64,000 nucleotides of DNA from contig CASFMW010000003.1 of NCBI GenBank assembly GCA_949295935.1, forward strand, positions 28,109 to 92,108. The letters are read 5' to 3'. The notes under the pieces were generated by a model. It was not told the origin of the DNA, did no database searches, and saw only the letters and a list, made by a program, of their open reading frames with translations. Origin of the DNA: an uncultured Pseudomonadota bacterium (GTDB lineage Bacteria; Pseudomonadota; Alphaproteobacteria; RF32; CAG-239). Of the stretch, positions 13,595 through 39,834 are shown in pieces; within the stretch, counting starts at the first letter, position 1; every line of letters begins with the position of its first letter. A program made the position numbers and the translations under genes.

Positions 13595-13670
13595 TTGTAA
13601 TAGTTGAAGCTCAAAAGAAAACATAATATAAAATAACAAGGATGAGAACAATTTTGAGGCCCAAGCGCTT

Positions 13671-14717
13671 ATGGAAAAAAGCTTAATAGCAATCACAATC
13701 GCCATAATCCTGTGCTTTTTAGGAAGCTTTATCGGATTAAAACAAATCTCTGCCTACAATGGCAAAGGAACGTTTTGGCTTTTGTGGACCGCAATTTTTG
13801 CCGGCTGGATGAGCCTCTATTTTGCACTGCCGCCTCAAACCGATTTTATCTCAGCACTTTATATCTGGGAAATTCCATCTCTAGCTACCATCAGTGCCAT
13901 TCTTTACATTTTGCTCCAAAAATTTCCTAAGCTAAGTTTAATAATACTTTTTCTCGGTTCCGAAATTGCTAGTTTCACACTCCCTGCCAATGGCATGATA
14001 TTTAATGGAGAATTAGACTTTTGGGCTGACAGAAGCACACTCATCTTGCTCTGGACAATTTATGCTTATTGCTTCAGCTGGCTAAGCACCACCGACGGCA
14101 TAACCGGTGCACAAAGCCTCGGAACCCTGGCCGGCATCGGCATTCTCAGCCTAATTGGCGGAGCTCCTTTATTCATGGGCATCATGGCACTATGCGCTAT
14201 TAGCATTTTTAGTGCTTGGCAGTTATTTAACAACTACCCCGCAAAACTAAAATTATCAAAAGCAGATAGCTGGGCACTTGGTTTTATTTTAGCATGGTTT
14301 AACTTAAAAGCCGCCACTGAAGGCGCCGGCAGCTGCATACTCTGCTTCAACATGTTTTTTGCTTATCAAATAATCATCAGCCTCGGACGTTACTTCTTAA
14401 CAAGAGGCAGCAAAAATCAATTATCTCAAAACTCTGACTATTATTTAATCGGATTAAGCGGCTTGGCTCCTGCAGAAACAACTGCAGCCATCAGCAAACT
14501 CTTGTTGCTTTTAATCATATTGGGAGGATTTTCGGCTTTTGCTCCAAACGCATATTCATTGCCGATATTTGCACTCATGAGCTGCATCTGGTTTTTCCAT
14601 CGCCTCTGGCACTGGAAAGAAGCTATCCCGACATTAAAAGAAATTAATAGCACAGTAATAAATGACATTAAAACCAATGTCAGCAACATCGCCGACGGGC
14701 TAAAGACGAAAGACTAG
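13671..14717 (+). CDS. Polytopic membrane protein, degenerate MraY/WecA-like (glycosyltransferase family 4) features
   Basis: ~10 TM segments; ...LSTTDGITGAQSLGTLAG... resembles the N-x-x-DG-x-DGL loop; C-terminal HRLWH histidine cluster; other catalytic motifs poorly conserved. Confidence 0.45.
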   Translation: MEKSLIAITIAIILCFLGSFIGLKQISAYNGKGTFWLLWTAIFAGWMSLYFALPPQTDFISALYIWEIPSLATISAILYILLQKFPKLSLIILFLGSEIASFTLPANGMIFNGELDFWADRSTLILLWTIYAYCFSWLSTTDGITGAQSLGTLAGIGILSLIGGAPLFMGIMALCAISIFSAWQLFNNYPAKLKLSKADSWALGFILAWFNLKAATEGAGSCILCFNMFFAYQIIISLGRYFLTRGSKNQLSQNSDYYLIGLSGLAPAETTAAISKLLLLLIILGGFSAFAPNAYSLPIFALMSCIWFFHRLWHWKEAIPTLKEINSTVINDIKTNVSNIADGLKTKD

Positions 14718-16126: not shown

Positions 16127-16912
16127 TTAAACCGAAACTTTCCCCTTAATCGCCGGATGATACTGATATCCTTCCAACGTAAAATCTTTAAGCGTAAAGC
16201 CGTCGATTTCACGAACAGCTGGATTCAAAACCATTTTGGGCAACGGATAAGGCTCACGAGAGAGTTGCTCTTTCACCTGCGCAAAGTGGTTTTTATAGAT
16301 ATGAGCATCACCCAAAACATGAATATACTCACCGGCTTCAAGCCCACAAACCTGTGCTAACATCATGGTCAGCAAGGCATAAGAGGCAATATTGAACGGC
16401 ACACCGAGAAACATATCACCGCTACGCTGATACATCATAAGTGACAGCTTTCCATCCTGCACATAGCATTGATACATCATGTGGCATGGCGGCAAAGCCA
16501 TTTCATCAAGTTGCGTCGGATTCCAAGCCGAAACAACAAGGCGGCGGCTATCCGGCGTATTTTTGATGTCATCAACCAGCTTTTTCAATTGGTCAATACC
16601 GAGATTATCCCAATTACGCCATTGCGCACCATAGATAGGCCCAAGGTCACCTTTTTCATCAGCCCATTCGTCCCAGATATGAACACCGTTATCATGCAGG
16701 AACTCTATATTCGTGTCCCCTTTAACAAACCACAAAAGCTCAGAAATAACACCCTTGAGAAACATTCGCTTCGTCGTCAGCAACGGAAATCCTTGCGATA
16801 AGTCAAACCTCATACTACGCCCAAAAACCGAGCGTGTTCCTGTACCTGTGCGGTCTTCTTTGTCATGACCGTTTTCAATAATGTCCTTAAGTAAATCAAG
16901 ATACTGTTTCAT
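16127..16912 (-). CDS. thyA: Thymidylate synthase
   Basis: [15 protein letters not shown]... and catalytic-Cys region (…[10 protein letters not shown]…); ATG at 16910-16912 (ORF-track extension to 16957 is upstream read-through from a TTG). Confidence 0.97.
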
Positions 16913-16967
16913 AAAAAATAATATTTTAGAATTAATAATAAAGTTAATTGAGCTCAATATATCCTAT

Positions 16968-16992
16968 TTTAGACAAAGGTCAACAAAAAAGC
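16968..16992 (-). promoter_or_regulatory. Conserved promoter-like element upstream of thyA (minus-strand reading TTTTTTGTTGACCTTTGTCTAAAA; -35 TTGACC, 16-bp spacer, -10 TATATT)
   Basis: Near-identical motif recurs at 25830, 34065, 40992 and, related, 18699. Confidence 0.5.
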
Positions 16993-17076
16993 ATATCAAA
17001 AAAGCGGTTGCAATCTCGATTGAATTCAGTTATAACCAAATCAATTTTTAAGATTTTGTTTTTAAGGAGTTTTTTA

Positions 17077-18676: not shown

Positions 18677-18698
18677 AAACAAAAGTATAAATCTTTTA

Positions 18699-18777
18699 TT
18701 TGACATTTTTGTCACAAAGTGCTACCTAAAAATCAGAGAATTATTATTTTAGTTATTAATCTATAAATCTTATTATC
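18699..18777 (+). promoter_or_regulatory. Promoter (TTGACA-N17-TACCTAAAAAT) plus conserved A/U-rich SD-less leader for the first of two tandem membrane paralogs
   Basis: ~57-bp block 18721-18777 ~93% identical to 19315-19372. Confidence 0.5.
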
Positions 18778-19257
18778 ATGAGTACGATAGAAATTTTATT
18801 ACTGGGCATCATGGCCGTCATTGCGATTAATTTTTTCTATGTTCTTTTCAAGAAGCCGTTTTGGAATCTTTTCAAACAAGCAGTATGGAACACATGGAAC
18901 GGATTGTGCCTTATTATTTTAGGCATACTGTTTGTAATTTATGCAATCAACACGGAAAGAATAAACGGATTCTTTTTGCTGGCCGTATTTGTCGCAACCT
19001 TCGTGAGCTATATCTCGACCAAAATGATAGAAAGAAAATTCTGCACAGTTATGTATGGAGAAACTCATTTTTTCCGCATTACATCTTTTGTCGGCAAAAA
19101 GATATACGGAGAATTAGCCATCACTGGCTCGGGTGAAACTGTTCCAGCACGATTGGTTTGTCCGCTTCACGCCGATTACAAGTATAATGACATCATACCG
19201 GTTGCGGTTTTGTTATGCAAACAAAATGAAATCATCGTCGAACCGACGGAAAATTAA
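18778..19257 (+). CDS. Hypothetical membrane protein, tandem paralog 1 (159 aa; N-terminal TM helices, C-terminal soluble domain)
   Basis: Shares NFFYVL(F/Y)K.PFWN, HFF(R/K)I...G(K/R)I(Y/F)GEL and C-terminal VEP motifs with the ORF at 19373-19849. Confidence 0.65.
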   Translation: MSTIEILLLGIMAVIAINFFYVLFKKPFWNLFKQAVWNTWNGLCLIILGILFVIYAINTERINGFFLLAVFVATFVSYISTKMIERKFCTVMYGETHFFRITSFVGKKIYGELAITGSGETVPARLVCPLHADYKYNDIIPVAVLLCKQNEIIVEPTEN

Positions 19258-19261
19258 ACCT

Positions 19262-19291
19262 CAAGGAGAGCTTTAAGCTCTCCTTTTTTTG
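19262..19291 (+). terminator. Rho-independent terminator after paralog 1 (GGAGAGCT-tta-AGCTCTCC + T7)
   Basis: Perfect stem and T-run. Confidence 0.75.
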
Positions 19292-19372
19292 TTTGACTTT
19301 TTAAGCATAAAATGCTTACCTAAAAATCAGAGAATTATTATTTTAGTTATTAATTTATAAAATCTTATTTTT
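19291..19372 (+). promoter_or_regulatory. Promoter (TTGACT-N18-TACCTAAAAAT) plus conserved leader of tandem paralog 2
   Basis: Duplicate of 18699-18777 element. Confidence 0.5.
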
Positions 19373-19849
19373 ATGGAAACGCTTAAAATTTTTTTATGTA
19401 TTGTCATTTTCATAAACATGACAAATTTTTTTTATGTGTTATATAAAGCTCCTTTCTGGAACTTTGATAAACAATTTTTATGGAAATTATGGGTTTTATT
19501 CTGTTGCTCTGCATTAATTGTATTAGCCTTAATTTGTTATTTTCATAACATTAATAACAAATGGATTATAACAACAATATTGTTAGCTCTCGGAATGGAT
19601 TTAAACTCCATCCCCCTTGTGCTGTCAGATTTTAATAAAGTGATAAAAGAAAGACCTCACTTTTTTAAAATAGAGAGAATAGAAAACGGACGAATTTTCG
19701 GTGAACTTTTTATAGCCGAAAAGGACGACACATTCCCTGCTGAGATGATAAACGTTCCACAAGGAAAATACAAAATCGGAAATAAAATAACAGTAAACGT
19801 CGTTATCTGTACAATTGAAAAAATAAAAGTTGAGCCTCAAACAACTTAA
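19373..19849 (+). CDS. Hypothetical membrane protein, tandem paralog 2 (158 aa)
   Basis: Paralog of 18778-19257 (roughly 30% identity, same architecture). Confidence 0.65.
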   Translation: METLKIFLCIVIFINMTNFFYVLYKAPFWNFDKQFLWKLWVLFCCSALIVLALICYFHNINNKWIITTILLALGMDLNSIPLVLSDFNKVIKERPHFFKIERIENGRIFGELFIAEKDDTFPAEMINVPQGKYKIGNKITVNVVICTIEKIKVEPQTT

Positions 19850-21347: not shown

Positions 21348-23465
21348 TTATTCGAGGTCTTCCCCAGTCTCCTGATTAACTCTCTTTGCAGAAAGCTTAA
21401 CCTTGCCACGATTGTCCGTACCAAGACATTTTACCCAAATTGAGTCGCCTTCTTTGTAGAAGTCGGAAACAGAAGCAATGCGCTCGTTCTTGACTTCGGA
21501 AATGTGAACCAAACCTTCGGTTGTTCCGAGGAAGCGAACAAAAGCACCAAAATCCATAATCTTGGTAATAACACCATGATAGATTTTGCCTTCTTCCGGC
21601 TCGGCAACAATACCGGTAATCCATTCAAGAGCAGCATCACCGTCTTCTTTCTTAAGCGAAGCAATTTTGATAACACCATCGTCGCTGATATCAATTTTAC
21701 AATGTGTTTTTTCGGTAATTTCACGAATAACTTTACCGCCTGAACCAATAACTTCACGAATTTTATCAACCGGAATCTTAATCGCAACAATACGCGGTGC
21801 TTTATCCGAAACATGAGGACGCGGTTCAGAAATAGCCTTTGCCATCTCACCCAAGATATGGATACGACCTTCGTGAGCCTGAGCCAAAGCAGTTTTCATA
21901 ATATCTTTGGTGATTGATGTGATTTTAATATCCATCTGCAAAGCGGTAACACCGTCTTTTGTACCGGCAACCTTGAAATCCATATCGCCGAGGTGGTCTT
22001 CATCACCGAGAATATCGGTCAAAACGGCCACACGACCATCTTCTTCCTTAATCAAGCCCATAGCAATACCGGCAACTGGTTTAGCCATTGGCACACCGGC
22101 CGACATCAAAGACATTGTTGTTCCACAAACCGTCGCCATTGACGAAGACCCGTTTGATTCCAAGATTTCGGAAACAACACGAACAGCATAAGGAAATGTA
22201 TCTTTATTTTTCGGCATCATCGGGTGAATAGCGCGCCAAGCCAATTTTCCGTGACCGATTTCACGACGTCCGGGGCTACCGATACGACCACATTCACCAA
22301 CCGAGAACGGCGGAAAGTTATAGTTCAGCATAAAGTCTTCTTTATATTCTTCCATCAAACCGTCAACAATTTGAGCATCTTCGCCCGTACCCAAAGTTGT
22401 AACAACCAAAGCCTGTGTTTCGCCACGAGTAAAGATAGCTGAACCATGGGCCATCGGCAAAACATCAACTTCGCACCAAATCGGACGAACGGTTTTGGTG
22501 TCACGACCGTCAATACGTTTTCCGGTTGTCAAAACTTTTTCGCGAACAACTTTGTGCATCAATTTTTCAATAGCGTCTTGAGCAAACTTTTGTTCAAACT
22601 CATTTTCCGGATCAAGGGTTGCCTTAAATTCTTCAGAAGCCTGAGCAACAAGTTCGCCACGTTTCAGTTTATCGGTTTCTTTGAAAGCTTCTTCAAACTT
22701 AGAGATAAAGCCTTTTTCCAGTTTGTTATAGAGTTCATCAAACTCCGGCGGGAATTTCGGCATTTCCCAACGCGGCTTGCCGGCTTCTTTAACCATTTCA
22801 TTAATCATGGCAATAACCGGCTGGAAGTTTTCAAATCCGAACATAACCGCGCCAAGCATGGTTTCTTCAGACAATTCCTGAGCCTCAGATTCAACCATCA
22901 GCACGCCTTCAGATGTACCGGCCACTGCCAGCTCAAGTTCAGATTCTTTTTGTTGTTCTACTGTCGGGTTCAAGATATATTCACCGTTTTTATAACCGAT
23001 TTTAGCAGCACCGATAGGTCCGAGGAACGGAATACCGGAAATTGCCAAAGCGGCTGAAGCGGCAATCATAGCCACAACATCAGAATCTGTCTGCTGGTCA
23101 TGAGAAAGAACGGTACAAATAACCTGAACTTCATTTTTAAAAGCATCCGGAAACAGCGGACGAATAGGTCTGTCAATCAAGCGAGAGATAAGAACTTCGC
23201 GCTCAGAAGGCTTACCTTCACGCTTCATAAATCCACCGGGGATTTTTCCGGTAGCATAATATTTTTCTTGATAATTAACGGTCAAAGGGAAGAAATCCTG
23301 ATCGGGCGCAGCCTCTTTTGCGGCACAAACGGTAGCCAAAACCGCCGTTCCGCCATAAGTAGCCTCAACGGCACCGAGAGCCTGCTTCGCAACTTTACCT
23401 GTTTCCAACACCAACTTTCTGCCGCCCCAATCCAGTTCTTTGCGGCAAATATTCAATTCGACCAT
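21348..23465 (-). CDS. pnp: Polyribonucleotide nucleotidyltransferase (PNPase)
   Basis: 705 aa; two RNase PH domains, KH and S1 domains; follows rpsO. Confidence 0.97.
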
Positions 23466-23674: not shown

Positions 23675-23944
23675 TTACTTACGCAGATCCAGTTTCTTAA
23701 TGATATCCTGATATCTGTCGCTGTTTTTAGCTTTAAGATAGTCGAGCAAGTGACGACGACGGCTAACCATCTTCATCAAGCCCAAACGAGAGTGCAAATC
23801 TTTGTTGTGAACATTAAAATGCTCAATAAGTTTGTTAATACGAGCGGTCCAAATAGCGATTTGAACTTCCGGAGAACCGGTATCATTCGGATTCAAACCA
23901 AATTTGCTAACAATATCTTTAACTTCATCTTGACTAATCGACAT
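23675..23944 (-). CDS. rpsO: 30S ribosomal protein S15
   Basis: 89 aa, MSISQDEV...[23 protein letters not shown]. Confidence 0.97.
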
Positions 23945-23965: not shown

Positions 23966-24871
23966 TTAAAGATTAAACACACGAACGGGAGCAATTCTGC
24001 GCTCCTCGATTCGCACCACGGCCACCGACTTACCCTCACAAACGGCAACCGCCTCTTGCCCGACAAGGTTTTGAACATCAAAAGCCTTTGGCGAGAGCGC
24101 CTGCCCGAGTTTAAGCTTAGCGGCCTCAACTTCCGAAACAGCAATAACCGTGATGTCGCACAGAAATGTTTCTATCGGAAGCAAAACTCCATTTAGGGCA
24201 TCACCATACACCATATTTTCTAAATTTTCCAGTAAAATTTTATGTCTAAGGTCAAATTGCCCGCATTTTAAACGCCGAAGCTCCTGCAAATAGCCCAAAG
24301 TACCGAGTTTTTGAGCAATATCATGTCCCAAAGTGCGCACATAAGTTCCTTTCGAGCAAACCACGCGGAACTTTGCCCGATTCGCCGGCAGAATTTCTAC
24401 GAGTTCAAGTTCAAAAATTTCAACCTCGCGCGGCGGAATAGAAAATTCAACCCCTTTCCGTGCTAAATCATAAGCTCTCTGCCCATTAATTTTCAGAGCG
24501 GAATAAGCCGGCGGCACTTGCATGATTTTTCCTAAAAAAGCCGGCAAAATATTAAGAATTTCTTCTTGCGTCGGAATTTTATCACAGCGATCAATAATCT
24601 CGCCGTCTGAATCATCAGTATTGGTTGCAGCACCCCACTGCACCACAAATTCGTATTCTTTAACCCCGTCAGTCACAAACGGCAAAAGTTTTGTCGCCTC
24701 ACCGAAAGCAATTGGCAAAACTCCGGTGGCAAAAGGATCGAGTGTTCCGGCATGACCATTTTTCTTAGCATTAAAAATCCGTTTTGTACGGCGCACAACC
24801 TCGGTTGAGCCCATTCCGCGAGGTTTATCTATAATCAACCAACCATTTATGTCTTGCCCTTTATGTTTCAT
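23966..24871 (-). CDS. truB: tRNA pseudouridine(55) synthase
   Basis: …INGWLIIDKP…MGSTEVV…HAGTLDP… catalytic Asp motif; ATG at 24871 (ORF-track extension upstream is non-coding read-through). Confidence 0.93.
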   Translation of the reverse strand: MKHKGQDINGWLIIDKPRGMGSTEVVRRTKRIFNAKKNGHAGTLDPFATGVLPIAFGEATKLLPFVTDGVKEYEFVVQWGAATNTDDSDGEIIDRCDKIPTQEEILNILPAFLGKIMQVPPAYSALKINGQRAYDLARKGVEFSIPPREVEIFELELVEILPANRAKFRVVCSKGTYVRTLGHDIAQKLGTLGYLQELRRLKCGQFDLRHKILLENLENMVYGDALNGVLLPIETFLCDITVIAVSEVEAAKLKLGQALSPKAFDVQNLVGQEAVAVCEGKSVAVVRIEERRIAPVRVFNL

Positions 24872-24981
24872 TCCAAAATTCCGTAACATTAAAACCTTAT
24901 ACCGAAGGTGATAAAGGATAAAGCACCCCCTGTCAACTGATTTAAAACGAAAAAAGCCCTGCATAAGCAGAGCTTTTGTTC

Positions 24982-25785
24982 TTAAAGAGCTGACTTCAAC
25001 TGACACAACCTAGATAGCACATAGGCTGTATCTTTCACAATTTCACCAAAGCTTCGAGGTGCTGTCAAATACAAATAATCAGTATTATCAACCCCATAAG
25101 CCAAAGTCATCGGCTTTTTCAAACTCAGCAATTCTTTACAGCGCTTGAGCAGGCTTGGCAACACAATCGGCTTTTTATAATAGACATCTTTATGACGATT
25201 ACGATCAAGCAACATTCCTTTACCATGTCGCACCACCAAGAGCAAATCAGCAAATGTTCGTTCAAGTATGCCTTGTCGGTTATCATACCAAACATCAAAA
25301 CTCTTAAAATCCATTTCCGCACAAACAATCTGCTTAGGATTATATTCATTACGAAAAACGGAAAAATAAGTTTTTTGCTTAAGACCGATATTTGTATCAA
25401 AAAATGAAAAACAGTTACCATCGACATACAGCGAACCTTTTTCAACCAACGCCCCCAAGCGTTTTATTTGACAATCAGCGCCAATAGCATAATAACAATC
25501 GCCATTATAAGCTTTCATCTGCCTACCATTTTGATATTCACCACTGCATTTTCCTGAAGGATAAAGCAAATATCCGCTTTTTACGCTAATGGAACGCACA
25601 TGAGAAACCAATACCTCCAATGCCGGAAAACTAAGAATCATACTCATCTTTGTTTCTGTGCAGTGAAGCACGGCTAGATTACGAAAAGTCCAAAATTCAC
25701 CTTTTTCAACATGTGTCTCAATACCGCCGATTTCTCTTGAAGTCACTTTCAGAACAGCTGTTCCGTTTTGAATAAATTTTTCCAT
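24982..25785 (-). CDS. Hypothetical protein (267 aa), Cys/Tyr-rich, no recognisable domain; inserted between rbfA and truB
   Basis: ORF preceded by the conserved TTGACTTTTGTCTA promoter motif; shares an F-D/S-x-x-(Y/W)-W motif with the 144/179/180-aa paralogs. Confidence 0.55.
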   Translation of the reverse strand: MEKFIQNGTAVLKVTSREIGGIETHVEKGEFWTFRNLAVLHCTETKMSMILSFPALEVLVSHVRSISVKSGYLLYPSGKCSGEYQNGRQMKAYNGDCYYAIGADCQIKRLGALVEKGSLYVDGNCFSFFDTNIGLKQKTYFSVFRNEYNPKQIVCAEMDFKSFDVWYDNRQGILERTFADLLLVVRHGKGMLLDRNRHKDVYYKKPIVLPSLLKRCKELLSLKKPMTLAYGVDNTDYLYLTAPRSFGEIVKDTAYVLSRLCQLKSAL

Positions 25786-25829
25786 AATATATAATCTTTA
25801 ATAATAAATTCTCGAACTTTAAGAATACA

Positions 25830-25852
25830 CCATTTTAGACAAAAGTCAAGCG
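25830..25852 (-). promoter_or_regulatory. Conserved promoter-like element (minus strand CGCTTGACTTTTGTCTAAAAT) upstream of the 267-aa ORF
   Basis: Motif family; -35 TTGACT, ~16-bp spacer, TATTCT. Confidence 0.5.
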
Positions 25853-25912
25853 TTTTACACAAAAAAAATACACTGTCACAATTGCGAACAGTGTATTTAA
25901 ATTCAAAAACGA

Positions 25913-26827
25913 CTAAAATTCGAGCATTAGAGATTCTGTCTTTTTAAACAATTTATTTCCAATTTTAAGGTGTTTACTAGGAATGCACTCTAAAAAGCCA
26001 CCAGAAGCCAAAACCACCTTTCGGTTCTGATTATCAAACCCCAACAATGTAAATGGCGTTGAAGAATCAGATAAGACAACCGTGTTCATCCATAAAGAAT
26101 AAAAGTCTTTTTCTTTGTTTAACAATAAAAAAGAGGCAGATTTTTCATCCCAACCATACAATCGATTATTAGATTTAAGAAAACAATGTCGGCGTGGTTT
26201 ATAAAGACGACCAACAGGTGTCAATACATCAAACCTGCCATCCAATCGCTCTCCTACAACAAATTTTCCTTGATGTCCCCAAAAATCAATTATTTCATAA
26301 TTCTTCCAAACAGTTTCACGCACCACATTTTTATTAAAATAACGAACAGTCATCGTCCCATCTGAAAAAGGAGTAATAAAAACATTGTTTTCATCTAATT
26401 TCTTTTTTCCTAACAAGACTTCATCTTCGCCACAATACCAAGATTTTTTTCCCTTTCGATATATAAAAATATAAGGAGAAAAACTAAAATCTTTTACACT
26501 GCATGAAAGTTTCACAAAAGAACATCTTTTAGAACAATAACGATAAAGAACATAAAGACCATCGAGTTTACTAAAAACTAATAAATCTCCCTCATGAAAA
26601 GAAAAGCTTCCTTTAAGTCCCTCATTATAACAAACATACTTTCTTTCCTGTTCCGAATACAGATAAGCAGCCTTCAAATCACCAATAAACGTTTGCATTC
26701 CAAATTTTGAACGAACAAAAAACTTCGTCTCGGTTAATACAAAAGATTTCATAATTATAAAGATTAAAATTAAACATAAAAATAAATTAAAGTAACCAAG
26801 AGATAGCACAAGTTTTTCATTTGTCAA
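25913..26827 (-). CDS. Hypothetical membrane-anchored protein (304 aa; single N-terminal TM helix, Tyr/Lys-rich beta-rich ectodomain)
   Basis: ORF; hydrophobic segment LVLSLGYFNLFLCLILIFII; located inside the infB-rbfA-truB-rpsO-pnp gene string. Confidence 0.55.
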   Translation of the reverse strand: MTNEKLVLSLGYFNLFLCLILIFIIMKSFVLTETKFFVRSKFGMQTFIGDLKAAYLYSEQERKYVCYNEGLKGSFSFHEGDLLVFSKLDGLYVLYRYCSKRCSFVKLSCSVKDFSFSPYIFIYRKGKKSWYCGEDEVLLGKKKLDENNVFITPFSDGTMTVRYFNKNVVRETVWKNYEIIDFWGHQGKFVVGERLDGRFDVLTPVGRLYKPRRHCFLKSNNRLYGWDEKSASFLLLNKEKDFYSLWMNTVVLSDSSTPFTLLGFDNQNRKVVLASGGFLECIPSKHLKIGNKLFKKTESLMLEF

Positions 26828-26874
26828 ACAAAAAAAGAAGCCGCAAACGCGACTTCTTAAGCAATCACAAAGCG

Positions 26875-27264
26875 TTATTCTTCATCATTTTTAGCCAAAT
26901 CACGCGCCACTTTGGGGTCTCGCAAAAGCTTTTCGATTTTATCAACTTCCTCAAAACTCTTATCAATTCTAAAACTAAGCTCCGGCACATAACGCAACTC
27001 GGTTTTTGCCATAATCACTTTGCGCAAATAGTTTGCCGCAAGTTGCAACCCGCCGATAACCTGCTGTTCTGCTTCTTTTGATGAAGTTATGATATAAACG
27101 GAAGCATATTTCAAATCCGGAGAAACCTTAACTTCCATAACCGTAACAAGGGTGTTAATTCCTTGCAGATTGCGAATTTCATCACGCTCAATTTGCTTGG
27201 CAATAATTTTCTTAATTTCTTGCCCGACACGCAACTGCCGCTGAGAAGGTTCTTTATCAGCCAT
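26875..27264 (-). CDS. rbfA: Ribosome-binding factor A
   Basis: MADKEPSQRQLRVGQEIKKIIA... KH-like RbfA signature; start at internal ATG 27264. Confidence 0.9.
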   Translation of the reverse strand: MADKEPSQRQLRVGQEIKKIIAKQIERDEIRNLQGINTLVTVMEVKVSPDLKYASVYIITSSKEAEQQVIGGLQLAANYLRKVIMAKTELRYVPELSFRIDKSFEEVDKIEKLLRDPKVARDLAKNDEE

Positions 27265-27389: not shown

Positions 27390-30230
27390 CTATTTTCTTT
27401 CGGTCTTATCCATCGGCAACGGTTCTTTAGAACCACTGTTGAACAAAATAGCCTCACTGATAGCCGTGTTCTTAACCGGAATATCAGTAATCTGCTTACC
27501 GCAAATCTCAAGTCCGACACTCTTAAGAGCCGTCGCAATCGGCAAGAACAAGTCTGTATTTTCACCGCTGGCACCTGAATGAGCAAATCCAGTGACCGTA
27601 CCGTCCTTATCAATCAAAGCACCGCCCAGCGTAATATTTTGAACATAAGTATCAAGCAAGATTTCTGTACCTCTGCTCTCACTGTAACGATATCCTTTAA
27701 TCTTACCGGAATCTTCCAGATAGCCTTCACCGGTATCAAAGTCAAGAATACCAAGGCTCATATAAGTCTTCTGGTTAATCAGAGGCAAAGACAAATTGAG
27801 CGACAGCGGCGTATACTCAGTCTTTCTGTCAAGATAAAGCAGAGCCGTATTCTTATCAGGATTAATTCTAACCGCATAACCGGTAAATTGACCACCATTA
27901 ATCGTGCGCAGATTATAACTGTTGTTATCTTTGGTAATCAAATCGGCAGAAGTCAAAACAAACTGATCAGAAACAATCAAGCCCGCACCTTCTTTACCAT
28001 TGGCATTAGTAATTGAGATAATTGAAGTACGAACCTTATAAACATCTTCGGCAGAAAGAGGGATGGTATAAGGCGCACGCTCAACAATGCAAAGCATATT
28101 CTGAGCTTCGATAGCATTTTTATCATCAACAGGAACATTAACCCAAGTCTCTTTGCTCAAAGAGCCACTGGCTTTAACACCACCGTCTTCTTCAATGCTA
28201 ACCGGAATCTTGCACATCTTTTCATCTTCATCACAACAGGTATTGAAGATGCTATCGCACTTGTCACAAGGTTCATTAAGCTTGTTGTCTTCACAACCAC
28301 CATAAAACTTATTCGGTTCACAACCGCCGTAAATCTTATTATTGCAGTCACAATCAGGTCCAAACAAAGTCATGTTGTTACACGGCGTTGCCGGAGCGTC
28401 TGAAGTCAAAGCTGCGATTGGAGCAGCCACGGCAGCAACCGGAGCACCAACAACGGCTAATAACGGAGAAATACCCTCACCATCTTTAACTTCTTTTGAA
28501 TAACGCTCATCAGACGGAACCGGACTAATGCTGGGGTCAAGCGGCTCAGGAGCAGCTTCTTTACTCAACAAAATATCTGCAGGCTCAGCAACCGGTTGCT
28601 CTGTAACAACAGTCTCCTCAACCACAGCTTCTTCCAAATCAAGACTATTCAAAACAGTTGGTTGAGCATCTGTTGCAGGCTGTGCCACTGGAGCTGGAAC
28701 AGGCGCCGAAAGCGGAGCCGGCGCAGGTTCAGGAGCAGGTTGCGGCATTGGAACCGATTGTGGAGCAGCCATCGGGGCCGGAGCCGGCAATGGAGCTGGC
28801 TGCGGCGTTGGTGCCGGTTGCGGCGTTGGAAGCGGTGGAACCGGTGGAACCGGTGTAAGCGCAGAACCAACTTCCGACTGCTTATTTTCAACCGGAATCA
28901 ACGGTTGCTCTGCTTTTTGAGGAACAACCGGACTTGGCATAACTGGCTTATCATCAGGAGTATAAACATATTTTGTAACACTGTTTTTACGAGCTTCATG
29001 ATCAGTATATTGACACTTAATCGGATTATGAGCTTTTTCATGTTCAATATATTGAATCCGCTGGCTTTCTTTTTCAGCAGATGTAAAGCGATGAGAAACC
29101 ACCTTCAAAAAAGCCGGATGACTGCGAAGATTGTTAGCGGCATCAGCAAAAGCTTTTTCAACCAACAAAACCTCACCATTAGGCTCACCGCGCATCAAAT
29201 CAGCATAACCATCAGTCTCGCCCGACCAATAAATAACTTCACGGTTAATATCGGTAACCGTCCATTTAACCGTAATCTCAGAAGACCCGATACGACTGTT
29301 TTCCATAATGGCTTCATTCCAATTATACTTATCACAAATATTCATAAAATAATTGGTGATTTCTGCCGTAATCAAATACTCTGGCAAGGGGCTCGGTGTT
29401 TCTTCAATACAAACATCATCAGGAATTTTAACAATATTGAAGCAGTCTTTAAGTTGATTATCAAAAACGGAAATAAGACGCATATTGCTTTCCATCAACC
29501 GCCCTTGGTTCAAAATCGCTTCTTTGGTAAAACGACGGCAACCGAAAATACGGAATCGATAATTTCCGAGCTTTTGCATCAAAGGCCCGTTAATATCTTC
29601 ATCATTGAGCTTAAAATCAACCCATTCTAACTGGATAGGTGCATATTGCCCACATTTTCCATGAATTTTATCATAAACACTGCCGCTTGGACGAACAACA
29701 TAATTCTGCACAAAGTTATAGCGCACAACTTCTTTAACCCTAACTTTAGGAGCTTGCTGCTTTGCCTTGCATTTCTGAGGATTAATCGTGCAAGCTGAGG
29801 GTTGGACAGCAACTTTTTTATCACAAAGAATAGGATCATTTCCGCAACCTTGCCCCGGAAAGATGCTATTATCTTGCCCACTGCTCGCTTCGCAGCAAGT
29901 ACCGCCAAAAATGCTGCCATCACGATAAGTCTTGCCCTTAACCGTTACCACCGGAATATTTGCCGCTCTTCCATCTTGCTGAGGGTTCAATGCTTCTTTG
30001 CGCTGCTGAATACGAGTTGTAATTTCACCGGCATATTTGCTTTTCTGATCAAAAAAGCCCATACTCGAACTTGTATCGGCATATTCGGTCCGAATTTCTA
30101 TTTCCCCGTTGCCATCATAAGCATTATTATCATATTGAGAAGCCCAAGACGCCCTCAACGCAACAGCACTCACGCTCAGCGCCAAAACAGAACAGGCCAA
30201 CGGCTTGAAATAGCTATTTATTTTCATCAA
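27390..30230 (-). CDS. Large secreted multidomain protein (946 aa): signal peptide, Cys-containing N-terminal domain, Pro-rich PxP linker, Cys-rich CxC module, C-terminal trypsin-like (S1C/DegP-like) domain with apparent loss of catalytic His and Ser
   Basis: Signal peptide …AVALRASWA; 28.65-28.9 kb encodes PAPTPQPAPLPAPAP repeats; C-terminus aligns to S1 landmarks: VLTSADL (TAAHC with H->D), NTALLYLD, ITLGGALID (GNSGGPL with S->L). Confidence 0.85.
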   Translation of the reverse strand: MMKINSYFKPLACSVLALSVSAVALRASWASQYDNNAYDGNGEIEIRTEYADTSSSMGFFDQKSKYAGEITTRIQQRKEALNPQQDGRAANIPVVTVKGKTYRDGSIFGGTCCEASSGQDNSIFPGQGCGNDPILCDKKVAVQPSACTINPQKCKAKQQAPKVRVKEVVRYNFVQNYVVRPSGSVYDKIHGKCGQYAPIQLEWVDFKLNDEDINGPLMQKLGNYRFRIFGCRRFTKEAILNQGRLMESNMRLISVFDNQLKDCFNIVKIPDDVCIEETPSPLPEYLITAEITNYFMNICDKYNWNEAIMENSRIGSSEITVKWTVTDINREVIYWSGETDGYADLMRGEPNGEVLLVEKAFADAANNLRSHPAFLKVVSHRFTSAEKESQRIQYIEHEKAHNPIKCQYTDHEARKNSVTKYVYTPDDKPVMPSPVVPQKAEQPLIPVENKQSEVGSALTPVPPVPPLPTPQPAPTPQPAPLPAPAPMAAPQSVPMPQPAPEPAPAPLSAPVPAPVAQPATDAQPTVLNSLDLEEAVVEETVVTEQPVAEPADILLSKEAAPEPLDPSISPVPSDERYSKEVKDGEGISPLLAVVGAPVAAVAAPIAALTSDAPATPCNNMTLFGPDCDCNNKIYGGCEPNKFYGGCEDNKLNEPCDKCDSIFNTCCDEDEKMCKIPVSIEEDGGVKASGSLSKETWVNVPVDDKNAIEAQNMLCIVERAPYTIPLSAEDVYKVRTSIISITNANGKEGAGLIVSDQFVLTSADLITKDNNSYNLRTINGGQFTGYAVRINPDKNTALLYLDRKTEYTPLSLNLSLPLINQKTYMSLGILDFDTGEGYLEDSGKIKGYRYSESRGTEILLDTYVQNITLGGALIDKDGTVTGFAHSGASGENTDLFLPIATALKSVGLEICGKQITDIPVKNTAISEAILFNSGSKEPLPMDKTERK

Positions 30231-30239
30231 AATACTCCA

Positions 30240-31772
30240 TCATTTTTTATAATGCGGCATCATACGGCGGTATGACAAAGCTTCAGCTACGTGCATTTTA
30301 AGCACTTTTTCATTATTTTGCAAGTCTGCAATTGTCCTTGCTAACCGCAAAATGCGATGATAAGCTCTGGCCGAAATTTTATTTTTATCGGCATAATTGA
30401 TAAGAAGCTTCTGAGCCTCATCATCTAATACAACAGCATTATCCAGTGCTTTTCCTTTCAAATCAGCATTTGTATGACAACCCTTAAGGCCCAAAGCTTT
30501 AAAACGATCGCTCTGAATTTTTCTTGCCACCAAAACACGTTCACGAATTTGGGCCGAGGTTTCTCCGGCCTTAACCGAAGAAAGCTCCCACGGAGAAACA
30601 GCATGCATTTCTATTTGAATATCAATACGATCAAGTAAAGGACCTGAAATTTTAGATTGATATTCTGCAGCACAAAGCGGCGCCCTCGGACATTCAAATT
30701 CCGGCGTTCCGAGGTGTCCGCAACGACAAGGATTCATCGCAGCAATAAGCTGCACTTTTGCCGGATAAGTCGTATGAGCATTAACGCGAGATATGGTAAT
30801 TTTACCGTTTTCCAAGGGTTGACGCAACGCTTCCAAAGTTGCGCGATTAAACTCCGGCAACTCATCAAGAAACAAAACACCATTGTGAGCCAAAGAAATT
30901 TCACCCGGTTCGGCACGACGTCCGCCGCCAACCAAAGCTGGCGTCGACGCATTGTGGTGCGGCGCACGAAACGGACGAGAAAAACATAACATACCGCCCT
31001 TAAGCTCACCGGCAATCGAATGAATAATACTGGTTTCAAGAGCCTCTTCTGGTGTTAGCGGCGGCAAAATCCCCGGCAACCTGGCGGCCAACATAGACTT
31101 ACCAGACCCCGGAGGCCCAATCATAAGCATATTATGCCCACCGGCTGCGGCAATCTCAAGAGCACGCTTAGCACTTTCTTGACCTTTAACATCTGCCATA
31201 TCAGGATAAATATTATTTTCAGGCATTTGCTGTTTAATCGGCTGAGGAATCAACTGTGTCCCTTTGAAATGATTGATAAGCTCAAGCAAATTATGAGGCG
31301 CCAAAATCTCTTTAATACCAGACCAAGCAGCTTCTGAACCTTGCTCTGCCGGACAAACCAACCCTTTGTTAAGACGATTAGCATGAATAGCCGCCGGAAG
31401 AATACCGTTTACCGGCAAGATAGAAGCATCAAGCCCAAGCTCACCAAGCACGATATAGTTATCTACTTCCTCCAGAGGAATAATCCCCAGACAAGAGATA
31501 ATACCAAGCGCCACTGGCAAATCATAATGAGAACCTTCTTTGAGCAAATCTGCCGGCGCAAGATTAATTGTCACTCTCTTTGCCGGAAAACTTATTCCTA
31601 TAGAATTAAGCGCTGCTCGCACACGTTCGCGACTTTCGGCCACAGCCTTATCCGGCAACCCGACAATAGAAAAAGCAGGCATTCCCGAAGAAATCTGAAC
31701 CTGCAAATCCACATCTTGAGTATCCAAGCCATTAAAAGCAAGAGTGTTAACGCGGCTAAGCATGCCTACCAC
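30240..31772 (-). CDS. comM: YifB/ComM family Mg-chelatase-like AAA+ ATPase
   Basis: 510 aa; N-terminal Lon-protease-like domain, Walker A GPPGSGKS, ChlI-type AAA+ core, C-terminal domain. Confidence 0.93.
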   Translation of the reverse strand: MVGMLSRVNTLAFNGLDTQDVDLQVQISSGMPAFSIVGLPDKAVAESRERVRAALNSIGISFPAKRVTINLAPADLLKEGSHYDLPVALGIISCLGIIPLEEVDNYIVLGELGLDASILPVNGILPAAIHANRLNKGLVCPAEQGSEAAWSGIKEILAPHNLLELINHFKGTQLIPQPIKQQMPENNIYPDMADVKGQESAKRALEIAAAGGHNMLMIGPPGSGKSMLAARLPGILPPLTPEEALETSIIHSIAGELKGGMLCFSRPFRAPHHNASTPALVGGGRRAEPGEISLAHNGVLFLDELPEFNRATLEALRQPLENGKITISRVNAHTTYPAKVQLIAAMNPCRCGHLGTPEFECPRAPLCAAEYQSKISGPLLDRIDIQIEMHAVSPWELSSVKAGETSAQIRERVLVARKIQSDRFKALGLKGCHTNADLKGKALDNAVVLDDEAQKLLINYADKNKISARAYHRILRLARTIADLQNNEKVLKMHVAEALSYRRMMPHYKK

Positions 31773-32107
31773 CGCGGCGTACGCTCACCGTCACGCCAAC
31801 GGCGAGTAGGATAAGTTCCGCGATGCAAAAAGTCATAGCTTGCGGTTTTATAAGGGATATCCCTATAGCGAACATATCCTTTTCTTTCAAAAATCAAAGC
31901 ACATTCTTCAGAACTGGTTGTCGGCGTTGAATAGCAATGGACAATATATTTGCTCATCGGATTAAGCAGGCTGATTTTGGTCGGCGTATTAACAAAACAA
32001 GGAGGCGCCGCCACATAATTAACCTTTCCTTCCTCGGGAAATTCCCAAAGAGAAGAACATGCGCTCAAAATAAAAAGCAACGGAGCGATAAGAAAAATCC
32101 TGAACAT
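31766..32107 (-). CDS. Small lipoprotein (lipobox LFILSACSS), C-terminus overlapping comM start by 7 bp
   Basis: ORF with lipobox after MFRIFLIAPL; Arg-rich C-terminal tail. Confidence 0.45.
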   Translation of the reverse strand: MFRIFLIAPLLFILSACSSLWEFPEEGKVNYVAAPPCFVNTPTKISLLNPMSKYIVHCYSTPTTSSEECALIFERKGYVRYRDIPYKTASYDFLHRGTYPTRRWRDGERTPRW

Positions 32108-32193
32108 AACACCAATTCCAAAGATAATTTCAAATAATAGCAACCATAGCATTTAATAATTAAAATATCCTAAATCTTTTTGAAAAATTTTTC

Positions 32194-32221
32194 TTGATTT
32201 TCTTCAATTTTCGTGTATATT
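32194..32221 (+). promoter_or_regulatory. Putative sigma70 promoter of rpsF-rpsR-rplI (TTGATT-N16-TATATT)
   Basis: Hexamers at 32194-32199 and 32216-32221, ~110 nt leader to rpsF ATG. Confidence 0.4.
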
Positions 32222-32330
32222 CCGAATGTTCCTTGCTCGAAGAGCTTGCTTTTCGGGCTATACAAATAAGGACTGAGCCGAGTTTTACTTTGGCTTAGAA
32301 TTGTTGAGAATCCATAAGGAGAATAATATA

Positions 32331-32669
32331 ATGAATAATTACGAGAGCGTGCTTATTGCACGTCAGGATCTGGGTGCATCTCAGGTTAACAACATTGTAG
32401 AAGAGCTCTCCAATGTTATCAAGAACGAAGGCGGAAACGTTGTCCGCGTTGACAACTGGGGCTTGAAAAACCTCGCTTATCGTATCAAAAAGAACCGCAA
32501 AGGCCACTATGTTTTGATGAACATCACGGCTCCGGCTTCTGCAATTGCCGAATTTGAAAGAATTATGCGCTTTAACGAAGACATCATTCGTTATATGACC
32601 GTAAGAGTTGAACAATTCAGCGATGCTAATGACGCCAGCAGCGAATCAACCGCCTCGGCAGAAGAATAA
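32331..32669 (+). CDS. rpsF: 30S ribosomal protein S6
   Basis: [14 protein letters not shown]...; AAGGAG SD 9 nt upstream; acidic C-terminal tail. Confidence 0.95.
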
Positions 32670-32681
32670 GGAGAATCGAAA

Positions 32682-32909
32682 ATGGCAAAACAAGTATTCT
32701 TTAGAAGAAAGAAAGCATGTCCGTTTTCAGGCGAAGACGCTTTGAAGATTGACTACAAAGACGTAAAACTTCTCTCCAGATATATTTCTGAAAAAGGGAA
32801 GATTATCCCCAGCCGCATTACCTCCGTTTCTGTTAAGAAGCAGAGAGAATTGGCAAGAGCAATCAAACGTGCACGTTACATCGGCTTATTGCCGTTTGTA
32901 GCCGACTAA
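32682..32909 (+). CDS. rpsR: 30S ribosomal protein S18
   Basis: 75 aa, ...[44 protein letters not shown]. Confidence 0.95.
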
Positions 32910-32927
32910 GCGGAAGGAGAGAAAGAA

Positions 32928-33413
32928 ATGGAAATCATTCTTCTGGAACATGTTGAAAAATTAGGCAAGATGGGCGACAAAGTAAACGTTAAAAACGGTT
33001 ATGCCCGCAACTACCTTTTACCTTCAAAGAAAGCTTTGCGCGCTACTGAAGCAAACATCGCTTTTTATGAAAAGAAAAAAGCAGAGCTTGAAGCTCACAA
33101 CAAAGCTTTGTTTGATGAAGCAAACAAAAAAGCAGAAGCATTAAAAGGCTTCAATGCAGTTTTGATTCGTCAAGCAGCAGAAACAGGCCAATTATATGGT
33201 TCTGTTACAATCCGCGACATTGCAAGTGCAATCAAAGAAGCCGGATTCGATGTTGAACGCCGCTGCGTATTCCTTGAGAAACCGATTAAAGACTTGGGCG
33301 TATATGAAGTAAAACTCAACTTACACCCTGAAGTATCTCAAGTTATTTTGGTAAACGTCGCTCGTACAGAAGACGAAGCCAAGAAGCAGGCAAAAGCTCA
33401 TTCTGCTGAATAA
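32928..33413 (+). CDS. rplI: 50S ribosomal protein L9
   Basis: 161 aa, MEIILLEHVEKLGKMGDKVNVKNGYARNYLLP... Confidence 0.95.
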   Translation: MEIILLEHVEKLGKMGDKVNVKNGYARNYLLPSKKALRATEANIAFYEKKKAELEAHNKALFDEANKKAEALKGFNAVLIRQAAETGQLYGSVTIRDIASAIKEAGFDVERRCVFLEKPIKDLGVYEVKLNLHPEVSQVILVNVARTEDEAKKQAKAHSAE

Positions 33414-33427
33414 AACTTCGGTTTTAA

Positions 33428-33467
33428 CAAAAAAGCTCTGAGTAGTGAAACTCAGAGCTTTTTTTAA
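33428..33467. terminator. Bidirectional terminator between rplI (+) and the 180-aa paralog (-): AGCTCTGAG-tagtgaa-CTCAGAGCT flanked by A/T runs
   Basis: Perfect 9-bp stem. Confidence 0.75.
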
Positions 33468-34006
33468 TCTAAAGAAGCAACCGGACAGGCAAAATAAGTA
33501 TTGAGTTTTCCACCAGCAATAAGACTATCAGGACTATCCAAAAAATAAACAATTCCAGCAGCCCCTCCATTTCCATACTCACTATCTGTCCACAAAATAT
33601 CATGAGGACAAATCGGCTCAAAGCCCATTCTTATTCGCTGAATATTAATCTGCGTTAAACGAGGACAAACTTCTACCAGCCAAAAATGCCTATCCCCGCG
33701 AGAACATTTATTGCCAAGAATAGTTTGTTTTTCACAATACTTTCCTGCTTCAAACCAATCTAAATGATTAGTTGAATGCTCAATAAATACAGCTTTTCCA
33801 GCAATAATTATTGCTTTAGGATGTACCCCTTTCAAAGGAAACCAAGAACGTTTATCATTTTCATAAACAACTTCAAAAGAAAAGCGTTCTTTAGGACCTC
33901 CTTTCTGAACAAAATACCCTCCAAAATAACGAGCAATTTCTGCCGGAAGAATTTTATTCTCTTTCATAAGAGTTACCACTTGTTCTATAACTTCTTTTTT
34001 TTCCAT
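33464..34006 (-). CDS. Paralog-family protein 1 (180 aa) of a three-member small-protein family; possible SUKH/Smi1-Knr4-like fold (speculative)
   Basis: Shares with 34123-34662 and 40491-40925 the core ...(V/L)(V/L)Y(K/E)N..(K)RS..PL.GV.P.AI..GK... and YC(E/Q)KQ...G...FW and F(D/S)xx(Y/W)W blocks. Confidence 0.7.
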   Translation of the reverse strand: MEKKEVIEQVVTLMKENKILPAEIARYFGGYFVQKGGPKERFSFEVVYENDKRSWFPLKGVHPKAIIIAGKAVFIEHSTNHLDWFEAGKYCEKQTILGNKCSRGDRHFWLVEVCPRLTQINIQRIRMGFEPICPHDILWTDSEYGNGGAAGIVYFLDSPDSLIAGGKLNTYFACPVASLD

Positions 34007-34064
34007 ATAATATAATTATTAAATTGACATCATAATAAAAAAACAAAATAAGGCTACATTAAGT

Positions 34065-34088
34065 ATAGACAAAAGTCAACAAAAAAAG
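34065..34088 (-). promoter_or_regulatory. Conserved promoter-like element (minus strand TTTTTTTGTTGACTTTTGTCTATA) upstream of the 180-aa paralog, abutting the upstream gene's terminator
   Basis: Motif family. Confidence 0.5.
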
Positions 34089-34118
34089 GTTTTATCCTTT
34101 AAGATAAAACCTTTTTTG
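34081..34118 (-). terminator. Rho-independent terminator of the 179-aa paralog gene (AGGTTTTATCCTT / AAGATAAAACCT + T-run)
   Basis: Inverted repeat with flanking A/T runs. Confidence 0.7.
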
Positions 34119-34122: not shown

Positions 34123-34662
34123 TCACGGCATCAATAACATCGGTCGAACACTAAAATTTTGAGATTTAGAAGCAATTTTCTCCACTCCTTTCTTAAAACA
34201 AGAACAGGAACATCCATACCTAGAAGAATAAATCCAATAAGCAGAAGAAAAATCAATTTTTTGCCCACCAAGAATTTCTATCTCCTGATTAATGTTATCA
34301 GCATTCTTAAACAAGAAATCCCAAATCTTACGAGTACCCATATTGGCCGAATAACCATAAAATTTAATTTGAGCAGCTCCATCTAAAGCTTCTGCAAAAG
34401 AAAGCCTTTGTGGCAAATCCCAAAGCGAAACAAAACAACGTTCCACAAAAATAGCAATTGGAATCTCGCCCAAAACTTTACAATCATAAACGTGCCCTGA
34501 CTTATACAAAACCTTAAAAGGCAAAGGCTCAGAAACAACACTCACTTCTGTATCAGCAACAAATTTCCCGCCCCATCGTTTGCATAAATCATCAATTGAA
34601 ATACCTTTTCTCAACATCTCACTAAAAAGGTAATCTACCGCTTCACTTTTACTTAGTTCCAT
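34123..34662 (-). CDS. Paralog-family protein 2 (179 aa)
   Basis: Homologous to 33464-34006 (N-terminal ...RWGGKFV... vs ...RYFGGYFV...; core PLPFKVLYKSG...GEIPIAIFVER) and to 40491-40925. Confidence 0.7.
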   Translation of the reverse strand: MELSKSEAVDYLFSEMLRKGISIDDLCKRWGGKFVADTEVSVVSEPLPFKVLYKSGHVYDCKVLGEIPIAIFVERCFVSLWDLPQRLSFAEALDGAAQIKFYGYSANMGTRKIWDFLFKNADNINQEIEILGGQKIDFSSAYWIYSSRYGCSCSCFKKGVEKIASKSQNFSVRPMLLMP

Positions 34663-37622: not shown

Positions 37623-37652
37623 TAATATCTTTCTCCATATCGTCTTTTTAAT

Positions 37653-38222: not shown

Positions 38223-38263
38223 TATGTTTCACCCTCAAAGCCGCCAGAGCGGAGGAAAAGCTA

Positions 38264-39814: not shown

Positions 39815-39834
39815 ATCCTCATTATTTATAAAAG

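Follow-up and report, generated by a model that had tools for sequence, protein, structure and literature searches.

A 64,000-nucleotide stretch of DNA from an uncultured alphaproteobacterium of the CAG-239 lineage (contig CASFMW010000003.1; "the window" refers to this stretch at its full length) carries two genes of no recognizable family, gene A and gene B, between the housekeeping genes rbfA and truB. Our analysis indicates that the rbfA-truB spacer is probably an old and variable accessory islet that holds lineage-specific orphan genes arranged as self-contained units, and that this genome carries a two-gene version of it. Orphan-gene islets flanked by core genes belong to a known class of features. 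What goes beyond the ordinary here is the location within a conserved gene cluster, the clade-wide persistence, the five new protein families, the divergent types of gene A, and the uniform expression module.

Two orphan genes interrupt the rbfA-truB adjacency

In Escherichia coli, rbfA adjoins truB within the cluster nusA-infB-rbfA-truB-rpsO-pnp, and this adjacency is ancestral. In the window, the order on the minus strand is rbfA, gene A, gene B, truB, rpsO, and pnp (Table 1), and the spacers from rbfA to truB, all of whose genes lie on that strand, measure 47 to 127 nucleotides (nt). As in clusters of the E. coli type (rimP-nusA-infB-rbfA-truB-rpsO-pnp), rbfA, truB, rpsO, and pnp are co-oriented and retain the ancestral order, and about 8 kb upstream the same strand carries rimP-nusA-infB (35115-40338). 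The window differs from such clusters in that rbfA and truB are separated by two orphan genes, infB lies about 7.8 kb away from rbfA, and the region is divided into separate units by predicted terminators and promoters. The stretch between infB and rbfA is occupied by two small orphan genes, rpsF-rplI on the opposite strand, a gene for a lipoprotein-like protein of 128 amino acids (aa), yifB, and a gene for a 946-aa trypsin-domain protein.

Pfam and NCBIfam gave names to the flanking genes only, in agreement with the original prediction, which had been made from the nucleotide sequence alone and had placed two co-oriented open reading frames (ORFs) of unknown function between rbfA and truB. 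The unknown genes thus interrupt the ancestral adjacency. The boundaries of the islet are well defined: the lengths of rbfA (129 aa) and truB (301 aa) recur in the gene calls of relatives, and the mechanical truB ORF of 346 aa, which runs into gene B, is over-extended, with the TIGR00431 match beginning at residue 53 of the long ORF. We found no publication on an insertion between rbfA and truB; one candidate paper merely used these genes as phylogenetic markers.

The islet is shared by diverged relatives and varies in content

Relatives also carry genes between rbfA and truB. Across the related loci from metagenomic genomes (given L numbers here), the gap holds one to seven genes from five families, A to E, that were mutually unrelated in all-against-all BLAST and hhalign comparisons. 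The window and L001 have A and B, as does L014, in which the rbfA end is lacking. L008 has A, B, and E (221 aa), and L011 and L018 to L021 have C, A (292 aa), A (309 aa), B (259 aa), D (185 aa), and E (218 to 226 aa). L007 has A, C, A (292 aa), A (309 aa), B, D, and E, followed by the end of the contig. In L017, one family-A gene (306 aa) stands alone between rbfA and truB, and L022 has A (291 aa), a 123-aa gene on the opposite strand, B (268 aa), and E (228 aa). In L003 (9730-10888), gene A is absent from the locus, and B is followed by an unrelated transketolase gene, truB also being missing. A member of family A adjoins pntAB in L023.

The islet occupies this junction even in lineages in which rbfA DNA identity is only 72 to 85% and the A proteins are 25 to 57% identical. 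Because the same junction is occupied in lineages separated to this degree, the comparison argues that the insertion is old and clade-wide, and the suggestion that the two genes were recently acquired is not supported. A synteny comparison had been proposed, in which conserved, annotated housekeeping genes at this locus would speak against an inserted cassette. The genes are indeed conserved at this position in relatives, but they are unannotated, variable in number, and dispensable.

The islet genes have diverged far more than their flanks. Between the window and L008, the proteins encoded by rbfA, yifB, pnp, and truB are 97 to 99% identical, whereas the identity is 55 to 57% for A and 84% for B. 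Synonymous divergence (dS) follows the same pattern, with 0.076 for rbfA, 0.17 for yifB, and 0.24 for truB against 1.49 for gene A and 0.72 for gene B; pnp, which was not paired with L008 in this comparison, gave a dS of 0.16 to 0.18 with L014 and L015. (In L008, at 11796-13872, pnp is split into pieces of 68 and 626 aa, which may be due to a frameshift or an assembly error.) In 100-nt windows, nucleotide identity is 97 to 100% in rbfA, 57 to 70% in A, 88% in the A-B spacer, 70 to 91% in B, and 90 to 100% in truB. The comparison with L014 is mosaic, A being 96% identical (dS 0.07) and B 85% identical (dS 0.50). The window and L008 share 98% rbfA DNA identity and the window and L007 share 83%, whereas the corresponding identities of the A proteins are 57% and 73%. 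The family-A tree conflicts with the housekeeping signal, which indicates that, at a single slot, gene types have been replaced or old paralogs differentially lost. Transfer of a window-type A gene into the L007 lineage was also considered and dropped: dS is 0.85 for A and 1.40 for rbfA, near saturation, and rbfA is short.

In L015, a deletion of about 140 nt has truncated gene B to 175 aa (L015 7867-8394). Together with the absence of A from the L003 locus, this shows both A and B to be dispensable. The GC content is 0.324 for A and 0.379 for B, compared with 0.425 +/- 0.022 for other genes.

Gene A is shorter than its longest ORF and encodes no transmembrane helix

The longest mechanical ORF of gene A spans 304 aa (25913-26827), and the original prediction had read it as a membrane protein with one N-terminal transmembrane helix followed by an ectodomain. 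The TTG "start" of this ORF (26827-26825) forms the first three letters of a TTGACA -35 hexamer, which immediately follows the T-run of the rbfA terminator. Seven of nine aligned database homologues (279 to 292 aa) begin with MKSFVL or MKYSAS; of the other two, one is extended upstream like the longest ORF of the window and one is a fragment. In five paralogous subtypes, in-frame stops lie 5 to 9 codons upstream of the ATG. The sole transmembrane-like segment (Kyte-Doolittle score of 2.63) falls wholly within the 25-codon extension, and the maximum in the 279-aa protein is 0.92. NCBI, ENA, and Logan all list exactly this 279-aa product. The larger gene is therefore one of 279 aa, and its apparent helix is a translated promoter and AT-rich leader, which removes the basis for both the 304-aa reading and the membrane-ectodomain topology. 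Neither a transmembrane segment nor a signal peptide was detected in the 279-aa protein.

A and B are orphan families under purifying selection

Reading frames of A and B are intact in more than ten loci, and alignment gaps preserve the frame across 25 to 96% identity, with dozens of invariant residues left. Pairwise ratios of nonsynonymous to synonymous divergence (dN/dS) are 0.14 to 0.41 for gene A and 0.10 to 0.15 for gene B, at dS values up to about 1.5. The low ratios and the kept reading frames argue that A and B are genuine protein-coding genes under purifying selection.

Family A ranges from 279 to 315 aa, with 44 residues invariant across its alignment; the window member contains 7 Cys and 15 Tyr. 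An exhaustive search of 1.84 billion representative proteins with a hidden Markov model (HMM) profile of the family gave 10 matches, and a word-indexed search of 5.8 billion proteins gave nine clusters. Family B ranges from 257 to 276 aa and has homologues at 25 to 86% identity; the latter search returned five clusters with gene B as a single query and 12 with a profile. Gene B contains 8 Cys and 16 Tyr, so the description of its 267-aa product as Cys/Tyr rich holds, and gene A is fairly rich in these residues too. No transmembrane segment or signal peptide was found in B (Kyte-Doolittle maximum, 1.36).

Family scans covered A, B, and island families C to E, those of A and B against Pfam and NCBIfam extending down to an expect value (E) of 1. 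None of the five matched a family in Pfam, NCBIfam, PADLOC, or PHROGs, A and B matched no sequence in PDB, and the earlier statement that neither ORF has recognizable motifs stands as far as Pfam and NCBIfam reach. With PADLOC-DB 2.0, none of A to E had a match to a defence-protein model at E <= 1, and profile searches of PDB sequences with A and B gave nothing at E <= 10. By hhalign, A and B are unrelated to each other, and none of families A to E, S, and T (S and T are further orphan families of the window, described below) is related to another. No internal sequence repeats were detected in A or B, and there are no additional copies of either within the 64-kb window. A shared F-D-x-W-Y block had been taken to link the 267-aa protein to a small paralog family, family S. 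Its members (180, 179, and 144 aa) match one another at E = 1e-9 to 1e-13, but the link to B is not significant: the family-B HMM matched them at E = 0.5 to 0.9 in a 140-sequence database, and hhalign gave a probability of 0.1% over 9 columns.

AlphaFold2 models gene A as an all-beta protein (pLDDT, the predicted local distance difference test score, of 80.4) with 26 strands in 279 aa, about 40 aa per four strands; this confident model was obtained from only 10 sequences. For gene B (pLDDT 65.8), the N-terminal two thirds are well-predicted beta structure and the C-terminal helices are of low confidence. Foldseek searches of PDB and BFVD returned only beta-propellers, with probabilities up to 0.99, at TM-scores of about 0.15 to 0.3 and root mean square deviations of 13 to 20 Å. 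Like beta-propellers such as BamB, WD40, and Kelch, the models consist largely of short antiparallel strands; in contrast to them, A and B have no sequence repeat and no propeller Pfam family, and the TM-scores are low. The models are consistent with a beta-meander that is possibly propeller-like.

Each gene is predicted to form its own transcription unit

Candidate promoters and intrinsic terminators punctuate the locus from rbfA to truB (Table 1), and a TTGAC-type -35 box comes straight after each terminator T-run. The gene A terminator was missed by the simple scan, probably because its outer loop exceeds the 3- to 8-nt limit of that scan, and the truB candidate promoter is absent from the consensus scan output because its -10 box lacks the final T. 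The gene A promoter can be aligned to the promoter portion of the shared module described below. For gene B, TATTCT stands 16 nt after the -35 box, and the promoter element TTGACTTTTGTCTA is found at 25836-25849(-), ahead of the 267-aa ORF as originally reported. The weight that we give to these predicted sites comes from their position and their conservation across loci.

On these predictions, each of the two genes would be a self-contained transcription unit that is not co-transcribed with rbfA or truB. Contiguity on one strand from rbfA to truB is what an operon would have, and the predicted internal terminators and promoters are what it would lack. The idea that A and B are co-expressed with the ribosome-biogenesis genes is not supported by this layout, with its predicted terminators after rbfA, A, and B and predicted promoters before A, B, and truB.

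The leaders of A and B are AT rich, about 35 to 50 nt long, and without a Shine-Dalgarno sequence, whereas most housekeeping genes of the window have AAGG, GGAG, or a similar motif. The leader beside the ATG of gene A is identical to that of the L007 orthologue at 34 of 35 nt, even though the coding dS is 0.85. Ribosomes are documented to initiate on A-rich, unstructured leaders that have no Shine-Dalgarno sequence (PMC7043885), and translation of A and B would begin in this manner, on an unstructured AU-rich leader. Expression of the two genes would be insulated from that of rbfA and truB and probably strong, given the consensus -35 boxes, the TG-extended -10 box of A, the unstructured AU-rich leaders, and the A-rich second codons.

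Table 1 Features of the rbfA-truB islet and its surroundings, with copies of the shared module
Feature	Position	Strand	Evidence or description
rbfA candidate promoter	27323-27295	-	Promoter scan; rbfA has an AGGAG Shine-Dalgarno sequence
rbfA (129 aa)	26875..27264	-	Pfam RBFA, 1.9e-26, and TIGR00082; upstream boundary of the islet
rbfA intrinsic terminator	26835..26858	-	Scan; 10-bp stem, then T7; fold of -14.6 kcal/mol, z = -2.9
Gene A predicted promoter	26800..26827	-	-35 TTGACA (26827-26822), 16-nt spacer, TG-extended -10 TATCTC (26805-26800)
Gene A AT-rich leader	26753..26799	-	No Shine-Dalgarno sequence; box TTTATTTTTATGTTTAATTTTAAT at 26786-26763
Gene A (279 aa), family A	25913..26752	-	Start evidence, dN/dS, and database record
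Gene A intrinsic terminator	25861..25898	-	Hairpin AAAUACACUGU...ACAGUGUAUUU, then U8; -15.5 kcal/mol, z = -3.7
Gene B predicted promoter	25822..25849	-	-35 TTGACT plus TTTGTCTA (25849-25836), -10 TATTCT (25827-25822)
Gene B AT-rich leader	25786..25821	-	GC 0.15 in the last 40 nt; no Shine-Dalgarno-like motif
Gene B (267 aa), family B	24982..25785	-	dN/dS and homologues
Gene B intrinsic terminator	24952..24977	-	Scan; 11-bp stem, then T-tract; -18.0 kcal/mol, z = -6.3
truB candidate promoter	24908..24936	-	TTGACA (24936-24931), 17-nt spacer, TATCAC (24913-24908); found by eye
truB (301 aa)	23966..24871	-	TIGR00431, 4.5e-71; downstream boundary of the islet
rpsO	23675-23944	-	
pnp	21348-23465	-	
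Module copy, ~80 nt	26747-26838	-	
Module copy, ~80 nt	25788-25867	-	
Module copy, ~80 nt	34001-34090	-	
Module copy, ~80 nt	40921-41016	-	
Module copy, ~80 nt	16908-16993	-	
Module copy, ~80 nt	18692-18782	+	
Module copy, ~80 nt	19282-19377	+	

A promoter-plus-leader module is shared with other genes

The promoter and leader layout of A and B is common to eight genes of the window: A, B, the S paralogs (180, 179, and 144 aa), an orphan tandem pair T (159 and 158 aa), and thyA. A profile of the approximately 80-nt module (98 positions) matches seven of these eight genes and every islet gene in the relatives; it misses the 179-aa paralog, whose copy of the layout lies upstream of 34662(-). The module consists, in order, of the T-run of a terminator, TTGAC(T/A)TTTGTCTA, a -10 box TAxxxT that is often TG extended, an AT-rich leader, and an ATG followed by GAA or AAA. 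Within the leader there is a box close to TTATTTTTATGTTTAA(T/C)TTTAA, also written TTATTTTTATGTTTAAT. The 14-mer TTGACTTTTGTCTA is repeated exactly at 34066-34079(-) and 40992-41005(-), five matches with up to two mismatches were found against 0.99 expected by chance, and the same 14-mer precedes island genes in relatives.

The S paralogs, which have no Pfam match, are located at 33464-34006(-) and 34123-34662(-), between infB and rplI, and at 40491-40925(-), between rimP and lptF/G. The T pair lies at 18778-19257(+) and 19373-19849(+), between spoU and rplY; the two leaders are nearly identical, one of the genes has a GC content of 0.294, and the counterpart pair in L008 shows 32% identity. 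The only recognizable housekeeping gene of the window with the orphan-type promoter and leader and no Shine-Dalgarno sequence is thyA (16127-16912, -). This pattern is repeated in L014 (10109-10195), and the mechanical thyA ORF runs 15 codons into the leader.

The closest published concept is promoter reuse before non-homologous genes, or putative mobile promoters (PMC3575422). The likeness lies in closely similar upstream sequences before families A to E, S, and T and thyA. The present case differs in that the shared unit of about 80 nt includes a translation leader, in that no link to a mobile element was seen, and in that the module is conserved across lineages with saturated synonymous divergence; such conservation despite saturation is better explained by selection than by recent copying.

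The leader box TTTATTTTTATGTTTAA(T/C)TTTAA also resembles AATAATTTTGTTTAACTTTAAG of the phage T7 gene 10 leader (T7 records), and a family-C gene of L007 shares the 13-mer TGTTTAACTTTAA with that leader. T7, however, adds a strong GAAGGAG Shine-Dalgarno sequence, and the module genes have none. The likeness to the gene 10 enhancer is one of sequence alone, and there is no rRNA gene in the window.

These observations raise the possibility, which we regard as doubtful, that the islet is the visible tip of a clade-specific regulon in which new genes, of foreign or de novo origin, are placed behind the approximately 80-nt module. The module would combine a consensus -35 box and the conserved TTTGTCTA spacer with a -10 box, often TG extended, and an AU-rich leader of phage-like character that functions with no Shine-Dalgarno sequence. 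It would give fast-diversifying beta-rich proteins strong expression under joint regulation, and recombination at its conserved copies would also exchange gene types among strains. A dedicated regulator might use the near-palindromic TTGAC-N4-GTCTA as its operator.

An accessory islet and how it may function

In accessory-gene hotspots, as generally conceived, core flanks stay fixed and the content between them varies. The rbfA-truB islet resembles such hotspots in its fixed flanks, its content of one to seven genes, and the loss, gain, and replacement of gene types. It differs from them in having no integrase or mobile-element signature, in a content made up solely of clade-specific orphan families, and in the same promoter-plus-leader module before every islet gene. 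The islet would change through homologous recombination in the conserved flanks and spacers. Its products may be dispensable cytoplasmic binding proteins that serve in strain-level biotic conflict, with phages or competitors, or in niche adaptation, rather than in ribosome biogenesis. This function is our guess and the weakest step, drawn solely from the variability, the dispensability, and the orphan status of the genes.

Several points weigh against this account of an old, insulated, variable islet. The high dS of A and B may partly reflect weak constraint on codon usage and not older alleles. The promoters and terminators are predictions, and some read-through from rbfA may occur; in a 4.1-kb consensus scan, promoter-like and terminator-like sites were no more numerous than in shuffled sequence. 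The position of family A beside rbfA throughout deep divergence could reflect a functional link with rbfA. A conflict function is not accompanied by a PADLOC match, by a toxin or secretion gene nearby, or by a sign of positive selection (pairwise dN/dS below 0.45), and the low TM-scores (0.15 to 0.27) make the description "propeller-like" weak.

The case shows that a gene cluster among the most conserved in bacteria can harbor a long-lived, strain-variable accessory islet while keeping its core genes. The two new protein families, and three more in relatives, come with clean boundaries, corrected starts, and population variation, and are candidates for function discovery. The shared module offers a testable handle on orphan-gene expression in this lineage and a possible marker for further orphan genes. 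For annotation, the lesson is that a promoter and leader can be mis-read as an N-terminal transmembrane helix.

Alternative explanations

One alternative, which we consider unlikely, is that A and B are secreted or surface effectors that leave the cell independently of Sec, target a host or competitor, and are co-regulated with the other orphan genes through the shared promoter motif in the manner of the effector regulons of intracellular bacteria. Orphan, fast-evolving, strain-variable families would fit such a role, as would the presence of the same 14-nt promoter element before many non-homologous orphan genes and the weak match of some neighbouring orphan genes in relatives to the adhesin domain Lcl_C. 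However, neither protein has a signal peptide or transmembrane segment, no secretion-system gene was recognized among the 30 window ORFs scanned against Pfam, the motif also precedes the housekeeping gene thyA, and the gene content resembles that of a free-living fermenter (ackA-pta, glgA).

It is distinctly improbable that the two genes are co-transcribed extra members of an rbfA-truB-rpsO-pnp operon that act as lineage-specific ribosome or RNA maturation factors. The predicted hairpins with U-tracts after rbfA, A, and B and the predicted promoters before A, B, and truB argue against it, even though the genes are co-oriented and tightly packed. Family A does remain the immediate downstream neighbour of rbfA even where rbfA DNA identity is as low as 72 to 79%, and it provides the sole rbfA-truB gene in L017. 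Set against this, A is only 57% identical where rbfA is 98 to 99% identical, unlike a core ribosome factor; A is missing at the L003 locus, B bears a deletion in L015, and a family-A member resides beside pntAB in L023. The type of translation start in A and B also differs from that of rbfA and most housekeeping genes.

A recently acquired mobile cassette, whether integron-like, transposon-borne, or a prophage remnant, that landed in the operon is a highly improbable source of the islet. Its appeal lies in the low GC content relative to the flanks (0.324 for A and 0.379 for B versus 0.425), in the leader that resembles that of phage T7 gene 10, and in the likeness of each gene to a phage moron. 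Morons are genes lodged between conserved ones and equipped with a promoter and terminator of their own, and A and B each have a predicted promoter, one ORF, and an intrinsic terminator between conserved neighbours, with atypical GC content. They differ from morons in being chromosomal with housekeeping neighbours and no phage genes close by, in lacking any PHROG match, and in having no relatives on 2.9 million viral contigs. The islet occupies the same junction clade-wide, with saturated divergence, and none of the hallmarks of recent mobility were found: there is no tRNA in the window, the islet is not flanked by direct, inverted, or att-like repeats, and the window ORFs scanned include no match to an integrase or transposase family. 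An integron cassette array is not indicated either, given the lack of flanking repeats and of an integrase among the ORFs scanned and the presence of a promoter for each gene; the hairpins at the gene ends differ in sequence and carry U-tracts, which makes them terminator-like and not of the attC type. An Rfam scan of the window from kb 20 to kb 42 gave chance-level matches only. An ancient foreign origin of the islet is possible.

That the ORFs are spurious or are decaying pseudogenes in an expanded AT-rich spacer, as their low GC content, missing Shine-Dalgarno sequences, and lack of database annotation might suggest, is scarcely credible and largely refuted by dN/dS values of 0.10 to 0.41 at dS up to 1.5, by gaps that keep the frame at 25 to 96% identity, by the gene A model at pLDDT 80, and by the 44 invariant residues of family A.

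Additional observations on the window and its relatives

Directly upstream of rbfA, in the position expected for infB, the 946-aa protein (27390-30230, -) combines a Trypsin_2 domain at its C terminus with a low-complexity core rich in Pro and Ala (local GC 0.53, about 28500-29000) and Cys-rich stretches. In relatives, this protein shows 56 to 96% identity and lengths from 931 to 1041 aa. The region upstream of rbfA is rearranged (31766-33413): in the window, rpsF-rplI face away from rbfA, with yifB and the protease gene between, and in L011, L016, and L018, rplI immediately precedes rbfA in the same orientation, and yifB and the protease gene are inverted. Large ORFs with no Pfam match are located at 3452-4504(+), 13671-14717(+), and 14722-16083(+) and encode 350, 348, and 453 aa; they have an ordinary GC content of 0.40 to 0.44 and are not preceded by the shared module. 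Downstream of pnp, relatives have a gene of 248 to 249 aa with a weak match to Lcl_C (PF07603), and the shared module stands upstream of it as well (L018 16151-16986).

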